Shown: piece by piece, positions 30,001-33,000 of the stretch
Layout: each line of letters starts with the position of its first letter
How positions within the stretch are numbered: the stretch's first letter is position 1
Source of the DNA: Stx2-converting phage Stx2a_WGPS6
Sequence record: AP012539
Reading direction: 5' to 3' (one strand)
DNA length: 57,849 nucleotides
Position numbers: made by a program

Positions 30001-33000
30001 GCAGATTTCGATCCCCGGGCTTCCGGGATGAGTGATCGTGTCATTGAATGCGCCTCCAGAGCGGGGCGCGACTTCTCAGAGTTCATGAAAGGCGAGAAGG
30101 GTATGATGGAAGCATTGGCCTCGGTGGATGAGTTTGGCGAGCAGCTGCGCCTCAACGGCTGTGTCAATCATCACTTTGTTAGCTACATGATGCGGAACTC
30201 GATCATGCAGGCATTCATGGACATGGCAAAAGCCGAGAGGAAAGAAGAGCGCCGGCGTAAGCGAGCGGAAGCAAAAGCGAAGTAGCCATTACAAAGCCCA
30301 TCTACTGGTGGGCTTGATAATGGCTTATACCCTACACGGGATAACTTAACTGATATCCCTTTTAACGGATAAAGGTATTCAAGCCTGACACATCATGCGC
30401 TGTATCGTCGCTGTATTTCCGCATTAACCATGACCGTAGCCCGACGGGGAATTCCTTCTGCGCGAGTGTGCGGGGATAATCAAAAACGATACACACCGGG
30501 GTTTACCGCGTAAACGGAGCGCGGCGTTCTCCCCTCATGGTCGCCCGTCCGGTGCGATGGTGGAAGAAACTGGAATCTGTTCAATAAAAAAACTGCCGTG
30601 TTGGAGTCACAGCAGTAATGTACTGATTGGGTAGAAGATTATTATTGTTATGCTTTATTTTTATTCTATATGGCTGATTATTTCAATTCGGAATTAATAC
30701 AGCTAATGTCTGTGAGTTTTTATAAATTCAGCAATATAAAGAAATAGTTATATGAACAGCCATCGCAGAGCATACTGTGTATCATTCTTTTTTATAGTCA
30801 ACTGACGGGCATATTTTATGTCTGCTGCCAGCTCCCGGCGGCAAGATTCAATGACCCACGCAGAAAAATTTTCTGAACCTTTCTGGTCAAGAGCGATGTT
30901 AATTTGTTCAATCATCTGGTTTGGAAATCGGATGTTGCGGGTTGTTGTTCTGCGGGGCCGGTTTTTCGATGACATTTTCTTTCCTCTGGTGACAAGCTAT
31001 ATGGCGAGGATTTTACATGGCTGTGCTTCGTACGTTACCGGGCAGAATCAAAACTCTGAACACCCGGCGGATAAATGTCCTGAGGGGGGAACAGCGTCGT
31101 GTCAGTGGCAGTGCCCGGGGTTCCCTCAAACGTCGTATCTGGCGGAGGGATGCCGGACACTGTTGTCTCTGTAGACGCGTGGTTGACCTTTGTGACAGTG
31201 AACTCGATCACCGCATTGCACTTCAGTTCGGTGGTGGTAATGAGGAGACGAACCTCTGGACCCTCTGTACTGAATGCCATCGCCAGAAGTCAGCGAGTGA
31301 AGCGGCGAGTGGTATGCCTGATCCGACGTTGCCTGAGCTTCCTGATGGCACGCTCAGGGCCGACGGAATCACTGGCCTGTGACCAGACCCGGGGGGGATC
31401 ATCCGGCGAAAAAAAACGATCGCCCTGGACACCGCGCCCCCTCTCACGCAGAGAAAAAATTCCCGTTTCAGGGCAGTTAACATGTTAACTGGCTGCCCGG
31501 GCATTTTTGCGGTTTTTATCTTTATTATTCAGTTTGTTGTGCGGAAAAAATGTTAACAGGCTTTTTCAGCAAATGTTAACCAGGCAGCAGTTAACATTTG
31601 CGGCATGAGACGCCGGGAAAAATGGGCTGAACCATACCCGGCTGAGTGCGTTCTGGACCCGGGAGGAGGCTGTGCTGACAACGCAAAAACGAAAATTTGC
31701 GCTGGCGCTCATGTCCGGGAAAAACAAAACAGCGTCAGCCCTTGCCGCCGGTTATTCGGCGAAGACAGCCAGGGTTAAAGGCTCGCAGCTGGCAAAAGAT
31801 CCGGAGGTGCTTGCGTTTATAGCCCGTAAACAGTGCGAGACGGTGGAGGTGGATGAGGTTCCTGTTTATCGGCAGAAAAAATCAGAGCCGGAGGATAAAC
31901 CCCGTCGCCGTGAGGCGGCTGCAATACCACAGCCGGACGAAACAAATCCGGAGATGCCACCGCCCGTGGTGATATCTCCTGGTATTGAGTATATGGAGGA
32001 CGGTCTTCCCGATCCGGTGAAAGCGATGGGGCGTCTTCTGGTGGAGAACATTAATACCGACCCCAGGCTGGCGCTGGATGCGGCTTATAAGCTGGCGCAG
32101 TTCACGCACCACAAAAAAGGGGATGCCGGTAAAAAATCGGCAAAAGGTGACGCGGCGAAAAAAGCGGCTAACCGTTTTGCGGTGCCACCACCACCCCGCC
32201 TGGTGGTGAATAATGATAATGAGGGCAACGGATGATACCTGTGTGGAGCACGGCCTGCCCGGACTGGGCAGAGCGCCTGAAAAAGGGGCTGTCGATTATT
32301 CCGGCTCCGATTTATCCGGAGCAGGCCGCACATGCCCTGGCGATTTTTAAACAACTGCGGATTGTGGATGCACCGGGCAGCCCGACGTTCGGGGAGTCCT
32401 GCGCACAGTGGGTGTTTGACCTGGTGGCGGCCCTGTTTGGCTCCTACGATGCGCAGACCGGTGTACGCCATATCAAGGAAGTTTTTATCCTTATCCCCAA
32501 GAAAAACAGCAAGTCCACGCTGGCTGCCGGGATCATGATGACGGCGCTGTTACTGAACTGGCGGCAGGCGGCGGGCTACACCATTCTGGCCCCGACCGTG
32601 GAGGTGGCGGCTAACGCCTTCAACCCTGCCAGGGATATGGTACGACGGGACGATGATCTGGATGACCTCTGTCAGGTGCAGACACATATCCGGACCATCA
32701 CCCACAGGGTGACGGACACCACCCTGAAGGTGGTGGCTGCCGATCCGAATACGGTATCCGGTATCAAGTCCGTGGGGACGCTGATTGATGAACTGTGGTT
32801 ATTTGGCAAGCAGTACAAAGCGGAGGACATGTTACGTGAAGCCATAGGCGGCCTTGCCTCCCGCCCGGAAGGGTTTGTGGTGTATACGACCACCCAGTCG
32901 AATGAGCCGCCAGCCGGGGTGTTCAGACAGAAACTGCAGTACGCCCGGGATGTCCGTGACGGCAAAATTCATGATCCGCACTTTCTGCCGGTGATTTTTG

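Follow-up and report, generated by a model that had tools for sequence, protein, structure and literature searches.

In phage lambda, the small terminase gpNu1 binds to the R3-I1-R2-R1 sites of cosB. The cut of SPP1 is flanked by multiple repeated boxes (the pacL and pacR boxes, bound by G1P), and both SPP1 and SF6 rely on headful packaging with one initial pac cut. The small terminase (TerS) of HK97 reads a single 15-bp site with its N-terminal arm and a C-terminal helix; this site is located at +15 to +29 of a genome that carries a 10-nucleotide (nt) 3' overhang and whose processing is assisted by the HNH protein gp74 (PMC11331095). HNH-dependent packaging from a cohesive-end (cos) site has been ascribed to the staphylococcal phages phi12/phiSLT and the satellite SaPIbov5 (Quiles-Puchalt 2014, in the form in which it is cited in PMC6092414), and satellites of Escherichia coli also exploit the cos sites of their helper phages (PMC6092414). 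Here, we analyze a stretch of 57,849 nt from the Stx2-converting phage Stx2a_WGPS6 (AP012539; one strand, 5' to 3'), subsequently referred to as the window. It represents an E. coli prophage of the lambdoid Stx-phage type, and our analysis concerns a cluster of GTTAAC sequences in the gap between its HNH endonuclease gene and terS. We consider it probable that this cluster is the cosB-equivalent, terminase-recognizing part of an HK97-style, HNH-assisted cos site.

The GTTAAC array and the cos core

The gap extends from the stop codon of the HNH gene (31382) to the GTG start codon of terS (31672) and comprises 289 bp, instead of the 290 bp given in the initial annotation. As this annotation had reported, it contains a perfect 18-bp palindrome, CAGTTAACATGTTAACTG (31474-31491), which can be read directly from the sequence, and three further GTTAAC sequences that start at 31552, 31575 and 31590. 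The repeat unit is an oriented 8-mer, ATGTTAAC, which occurs six times in the window, five times within the gap. Two head-to-head units (sites 1 and 2) make up the palindrome, the three further copies are placed at 31550, 31573 and 31590, and the orientation of the five units, from left to right, is minus, plus, plus, plus, minus. Site 3 (AAATGTTAACAG, 31548-31559) and site 4 (AAATGTTAACCA, 31571-31582) lie on the plus strand, and site 5 (CAGTTAACATTT, 31588-31599) carries ATGTTAAC on the minus strand. Sites 4 and 5 contribute the left and right arms of a perfect inverted repeat (I1), GCAAATGTTAAC at 31569-31580 and GTTAACATTTGC at 31590-31601; these arms are 9 nt apart and measure 12 bp rather than the 11 bp counted originally.

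Chance expectations for the cluster and the palindrome were taken from 300 first-order Markov simulations of the window. GTTAAC occurs 17 times in these 57.8 kb, and five of these sites are crowded into a 120-bp stretch of the gap; the densest 125-bp cluster of the simulated sequences held one or two sites and never more. Since a perfect palindrome of at least 18 bp arose in 62 of the 300 simulations, the palindrome by itself is unremarkable, and the significance of the element therefore rests on clustering and conservation. A motif repeated above chance is thus present between the predicted nick site and terS, as it would be in a cosB array.

The likely position of the nick is provided by two phages with published ends. 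Lys8385Vzw, which is about 98% identical to the window in this region, differing from it at two aligned positions 3' of the cut and at one position of the 10-mer, was induced, sequenced and analyzed with PhageTerm, and was reported to possess cos with 3' cohesive ends (PMC7946995), the overhang being 10 nt long. Its record begins with CTCACGCAGAG, which aligns to position 31443 of the window, and ends with CGCCCCCCCT (...GGACACCGCCCCCCCT); therefore, the homologous 10-mer of the window is CGCGCCCCCT at 31433-31442 on the plus strand. The Acinetobacter phage fEg-Aba01, an independent case that is only distantly related and whose TerS N-terminus is 49% identical to that of the window, has the 10-nt 3' cohesive ends CGCCCCCCAT, as established by PhageTerm and by a restriction gel assay with heating and cooling (PMC7354433). 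These ends are found at the position homologous to the putative cosN of the window, and the sequence of the record, ...GGACACCGCCCCCCAT / CGCACGCACAAAAAAAATTCCC..., shows the same core. The left end of the virion DNA would consequently start at 31443 (CTCACG...), with the palindrome positioned 32-49 nt inside it. The comparison with cos regions of related phages, which had been suggested as a check, hence places cos in the gap where the initial annotation had expected it, but the predicted cleavage site lies outside the GTTAAC cluster, 32 bp upstream of its start. Headful packaging, which had been named as one outcome that would speak against a cos site, finds no counterpart in these relatives, as their published ends are unique and cohesive. 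A literature search on the ends of other phages of this genus yielded nothing relevant.

The putative cosN is embedded in a cos core, GGACACC-CGCGCCCCCT-CTCACGCAGAGAAAAAATTCCC (31427-31464, plus strand), in which the cleavage site is combined with an A-tract box. Upstream, the module is bounded by a G-run (GGGGGGG, 31391-31397), an assignment derived from spacing and conservation: the run is located exactly 29 nt 5' of GGACACC in the window, in the satellite-like islands described below, in fEg-Aba01 and in the Burkholderia phage vB_E228, and the intervening 29 nt are fixed in length and differ in sequence. All relatives share the order G-run, 29 variable nt, GGACACC, 10-nt overhang, and CTCACGC(A/G)(C/G)AGAAAAAATTCCC. 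The core is almost invariant in 70 unique E. coli variants and in 81 canonical relatives from other genera, among which the G-run is nearly invariant as well, and it is recognizable in a sister TerS family and in Burkholderia and Acinetobacter phages. Its conservation far exceeds that of the flanking genes; TerS is only 37-49% identical where the core is kept. Short similarities within the gap (D4, D7, D8) had raised the idea of an ancient tandem duplication of the core; they are not colinear and were treated as chance.

Relatives were collected by three routes, a TerS profile scan of genomes, a scan of viral contigs with the cut-site core, and phage records. A scan of genome contigs with the single TerS protein found none, and the profile scan recovered them. 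The 70 variants were retrieved with the cut-site flank alone; because the motif took no part in this search, the set is unbiased for it. Within it, positions 31475-31491, 31545-31557 and 31571-31580 are invariant, 31590-31597 are nearly so, and their neighbors vary. Conservation of the cos module ends with site 5. In copies with an overall identity of 80-88%, the five units are retained and their spacing is constant to within 1 nt; all five units are also present in the loci L130, L131, L144 and L156 (84-88% identical). The T-rich spacer between sites 2 and 3 (31492-31547) is partly conserved, in that its T-tracts and TCTTTAT-ATTCA are kept, its other positions vary, and its length stays within 1-2 nt; it may possibly have a role in bending. 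Pattern matches with a length other than 97-100 bp turned out to be unrelated tandem repeats of other viruses and were discarded.

The array has been retained outside of phages. In E. coli 2021CK-00607, an island of about 9.5 kb is located between cspD/yljB and clpS (L085 1440-1700; L088, NZ_CP104665.1 3236500-3256500) with genes for an integrase, a helix-turn-helix regulator, a YlcI/YnfO protein, an Icd-like protein, a RepA-family helicase and a protease-capsid fusion. No terS, terminase or HNH gene is present on it. At its end, the G-run, the cut site and all five ATGTTAAC units recur with 80% identity, and the homology between phage and island stops directly past unit 5 (GTTAACATT). Islands of this type occur in 50 complete E. 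coli genomes, including that of strain 042. A viral contig of 14.4 kb (L355, IMGVR_UViG) has a P4-type integrase at one end and the cos core at the other, about 900 nt from the contig end; here, the core is accompanied by ATTAACATGTTAAT and, about 90 bp downstream, by two xxAACATGTTAACAG units, and no terS follows. These elements keep the cut site and the array, exactly the cis-acting signals that packaging by a foreign terminase would need. The cspD-clpS island looks like a satellite of this phage family of the phage-inducible chromosomal island type, and the E. coli islands would depend on a helper. No similarity was detectable between its protease-capsid fusion and that of the window, and the fusion therefore carries no information on which phage is the helper. 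Collectively, the motifs are conserved where the spacers diverge, and they are kept by elements that possess only the cis-acting signals, a behavior expected of a cosB array.

The candidate reader of the repeats

The position of the motif in other genera connects it to terS. Canonical relatives comprise 19 genome loci (L005-L023, from Kluyvera, Atlantibacter, Erwinia, Serratia, Enterobacter, Kosakonia, Citrobacter and others), the viral-contig set, represented by the consensus of its 81 unique sequences, and the Salmonella phage FSL SP-016. About 33 nt past the cut, they show GGAGGG followed by the quasi-palindrome GT(A/T)AAC-AT-GTTAAC, whose central ATG (or GTG) is the start codon of terS. 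The palindrome of the window at 31474-31491 is homologous to this element and has remained at the ancestral distance from the cut; in the lineage of the window, about 190 extra bp with three more units follow before terS, which starts with GTG and is preceded by a Shine-Dalgarno sequence of its own. Copies of GTTAA(C/A) are non-coding and differently arranged in the window lineage, in the loci L275 and L317 and in Acinetobacter phages: L275 and L317 have two direct GTTAACC repeats, 12 bp apart, 5' of a terS that starts ATGCTTACA, and fEg-Aba01 has three AAGTTAAA repeats between core and terS. The motif is therefore not merely coding sequence.

Two side observations concern this layout. Canonical relatives carry an additional GTAAACAT (or GTTAAC / GTCAAC) unit upstream of the cut, within the 29-nt segment; in the window (31398-31426), it is replaced by the A-run GCGAAAAAAAACG, so that the E. 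coli lineage lost the upstream unit and gained three downstream. In vB_E228 (L251 1-60), terS starts with ATG GCT TTA ACA after GTTA, which yields GTTAA-N5-TTAAC. Among the leucine codons, TTA is used very rarely in GC-rich Burkholderia, and its occurrence here hints at a DNA-level constraint on the start of terS.

The sister TerS family (L324 and about 70 further contigs; loci L361-L439) possesses a cos core of the same style and an HNH gene, and its large terminase (TerL) is 55% identical to that of the window. Its TerS is homologous to that of the window in the C-terminal 70 residues only (E = 6e-10) and starts with a different, Gly/Arg-rich segment (MAGVKGKSGG...). GTTAAC is found in none of its 54 unique upstream regions, which have AATCAGCAAATG over the start codon instead, with extra upstream copies in L418, L419, L424-L426, L432, L435 and L438. 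GTTAAC is present in 117 of 117 unique upstream regions of the helix-turn-helix family of TerS proteins, and AATCAGCAAATG is absent from all of them. The identity of the motif consequently tracks the DNA-binding domain of TerS, in sets whose members are phylogenetically non-independent and with a motif that partly overlaps coding sequence. It does not track HNH, as three loci (L007, L010, L015) encode an HNH protein only about 30% identical to that of the window next to an unchanged palindrome. The core, being common to both TerS families, is a natural candidate for recognition by TerL and HNH. As a side observation, at least 19 of the 79 sister-family loci are located at a contig end 41-72 nt 5' of terS, which suggests that these are physical genome ends.

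TerS is hence the predicted reader of the ATGTTAAC sites. The small-terminase binding sites postulated in the initial annotation gain good comparative support from the conservation footprint, the satellite-like islands and the covariation with the N-terminal domain, from which we infer the binding itself. According to our model, the helix-turn-helix domains of a TerS oligomer, presumably ring-shaped by analogy with the solved relatives of its family, would bind the five oriented units (31474-31599) on concatemeric DNA. Bound TerS would tether TerL and the HNH nuclease to the conserved core, which lies 32 bp upstream of the array, and these two enzymes would nick in a staggered fashion, leaving the 10-nt 3' overhang CGCGCCCCCT. 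Packaging would then run rightward from the cut, which would place the array at +32 to +157 of the mature left end; with the cut at 31433-31442, it would lie between the cut and terS, on the end that is packaged first. The geometry that we envisage for the complex of TerS with the array is conjectural.

Several points weigh against this assignment. The ends were mapped in relatives, and cosN of the window was placed by homology. The sequence sets are phylogenetically non-independent, and the search pattern that yielded the loci L089-L250 included the motif. The covariation of motif and TerS is partly trivial, because half of the canonical motif encodes the first residues of TerS. The A-tract box by the cut resembles the TerS site of HK97 and could be the primary contact of TerS, with the repeats being auxiliary. 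The spacing of the units (8, 68, 23 and 15 bp) follows no simple helical phasing. The integration host factor (IHF) consensus WATCAANNNNTTR has no match with at most one mismatch in 31383-31671; an IHF site between the repeats, such as I1, is specific for lambda and not required of such arrays in general. Finally, a literature search for GTTAAC in connection with terminase and cos returned no description of these repeats.

Within a packaging or regulatory region, a protein other than TerS might read the repeats, be it HNH, the DUF3950 protein (YlcI/YnfO-type, 30748-30975), TerL, or a host nucleoid protein. TerS is proposed as the binding protein by comparison, the DUF3950 gene adjoins that for HNH upstream, and a YlcI/YnfO protein is encoded on the cspD-clpS island as well. 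However, the 19 canonical relatives that keep the palindrome possess no DUF3950 homologue within about 1.5 kb upstream, and the DUF3950 protein of the window is unmatched on the satellite locus; this candidate was rejected. HNH was likewise dismissed, since its subtype changes while the motif stays constant. Both TerL and HNH occur in the sister family, which lacks GTTAAC, and a host factor is disfavored by the missing IHF consensus. Hence, we regard a reader other than TerS as unlikely.

Less probable still is the view that the extra copies are neutral relics of a duplication of the terS 5'-end and that function resides only in the ancestral palindrome or the core. The unit does hold the ATG and first codons of the ancestral terS (ATG TTA AC), the lineage of the window has about 190 bp more between palindrome and terS than the canonical relatives, and the sister family, too, has duplicated copies of its start region. 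Relics should decay, however, and the 8-mers are invariant while spacers reach 20% divergence; furthermore, the satellites keep all five units, with homology ending exactly past the fifth, and independent lineages have independent arrangements.

A role in terS expression, as terminator, promoter, leader peptide or structured RNA, is the least credible of the alternatives: a sigma-70-like match on the minus strand (31579..31550), a 24-codon hydrophobic open reading frame from the ATG of the palindrome (31482) and an RNA fold z-score of -2.0 can be cited for it, but this z-score is modest, no Rfam family matches the gap (best E = 0.95), and the array is kept in satellites that have no terS to regulate. 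Among the specific candidates rejected, an intrinsic terminator is absent from the plus strand of the gap, where no GC hairpin with a T-run was found; the sole promoter-like match in the gap is that on the minus strand, which is built of two motif copies, and such matches occur at background frequency. The reading frame of the small hydrophobic peptide MLTGCPGIFAVFIFIIQFVVRKKC is broken by frameshifts in L130, L144 and L156, and in the satellites it ends after no more than four codons.

With TerS as the favored reader, a further idea can be put forward, tentatively and as the less probable case: motif and reader domain might together form a single, self-linked cassette of specificity. Both TerS families ancestrally have their motif across the start codon of that part of terS from which the proposed reader domain is translated, so that one short recombination at the 5'-end of terS would swap reader and site together. 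If true, cassettes would be exchanged behind a universal core recognized by TerL and HNH, and the five-copy array of the E. coli Stx-phage lineage would represent a diversified packaging specificity that satellites mimic unit for unit. The motif, its ancestral overlap with the start codon, and its joint swap with the N-terminal domain of TerS appear to be undescribed.

Neighboring genes and insertion sequences

The genes around the gap are those of an HNH-type cos phage. The HNH gene (31017-31382, plus strand; 121 amino acids) was identified by Pfam (PF01844, E = 5e-6); HNH is the accessory nuclease of this terminase type, and a homologue is found directly 5' of the cos core in 19 of 19 Enterobacterales relatives. 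TerS is encoded at 31672-32235 (plus strand) and belongs to Terminase_2 (PF03592, residues 2-57), with an N-terminal helix-turn-helix that matches the DNA-binding domain structures 3ZQP, 4ZC3 and 2CMP of the SF6 small terminase in profile searches (E about 1e-3); the identical GTG start is used in the RefSeq annotation of a relative. The terL gene (32232-33893, plus strand) encodes the ATPase and nuclease of the large terminase (Pfam TerL_ATPase and TerL_nuclease). The only sequence relative of this protein in the PDB is 6Z6D (E = 3.2e-9), deposited as "Terminase large subunit". This entry is TerL of HK97, and the large terminase of the window is thus HK97-related. HNH is located immediately upstream of cos, and terS and terL follow downstream, an order found in the 19 relatives as well. 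Just 5' of the HNH gene, a DUF3950 gene of the YlcI/YnfO family is oriented divergently (30748-30975, minus strand); genes of this family are also neighbors of the terminase region in DLP12 and Qin, two cryptic prophages of K-12.

Many Stx1a-, Stx2a- and Stx2c-converting phages and lambdoid phages related to them (such as YYZ-2008, BP-4795, 2851 and 1717) match the region with 95-98.5% identity, and the sequence of the gap is 100% identical in E. coli O157:H7 chromosomes. Of 5426 complete E. coli genomes, 1287 harbor prophages of this family, with the gap, in at most seven copies each.

Insertion sequences (IS) are found in or beside the module in some strains. In the PPompW prophages (LC567822.1; L440 746-2204), the IS110-family element ISEc20 ends exactly at the G-run and takes the place of the lysis genes and HNH; terS and terL remain. 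These prophages thus lack HNH and are probably unable to cut cos alone. The copy in E. coli Ec-U3 (L086 about 1698) is homologous to the window up to about 31585, a point between units 4 and 5; about 50 bp beyond it, genes of the IS66 family (tnpA, tnpB, ISCro1 transposase) follow. The array of this strain appears to have been split and parted from terS by an IS66-type insertion.

Significance and relation to known packaging systems

The GTTAAC array is most likely an ordinary and useful kind of phage signal, a docking site for the small terminase at the start of packaging. The prophage family includes many Stx1-, Stx2a- and Stx2c-converting phages, and knowledge of the full cis-acting signal, consisting of cut site and array, allows one to predict which prophages are packageable, a point of relevance given the IS insertions seen in and near the module. 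The same signal identifies chromosomal islands able to hitch-hike on these phages and sets the minimal cos fragment for cosmid-type vectors derived from them. Moreover, the natural swap of the N-terminal domain of TerS together with its motif offers a model, open to direct tests, for the encoding and exchange of packaging specificity among HNH-type cos phages.

Compared with lambda cosB, the window has the same plan of short, repeated and partly inverted sites between the nick and the gene for the small terminase, at the end that is the first to be packaged, and we propose that these sites likewise anchor terminase beside cosN. The details differ: Nu1 is a winged-helix protein, whereas TerS of the window possesses the helix-turn-helix of Terminase_2 and would read an unrelated motif; lambda has a 12-nt 5' overhang, in contrast to the 10-nt 3' end and the HNH accessory nuclease predicted here; and no IHF consensus is present between the repeats of the window.

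The staphylococcal systems resemble that of the window in the use of HNH for cos packaging, as predicted here, and in that satellites carry the cos site of the helper and a capsid-protein homologue; hosts and sequences are different, and for the E. coli islands, dependence on a helper is what their gene content suggests. With SPP1 and SF6, the window shares the TerS family only (Terminase_2, with the N-terminal domain matching 3ZQP, 4ZC3 and 2CMP), and its relatives, unlike these headful-packaging phages, have defined cohesive ends. The likeness to HK97 comprises the predicted 10-nt 3' overhang, the position of the HNH gene directly 5' of cos and that of the putative TerS site on the other side of the cut, a G and A-tract box by the cut, and a TerL related to 6Z6D, the HK97 protein. 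Where HK97 TerS has a single site, however, the TerS protein of the window would employ a helix-turn-helix domain and five 8-mers distributed across 125 bp.

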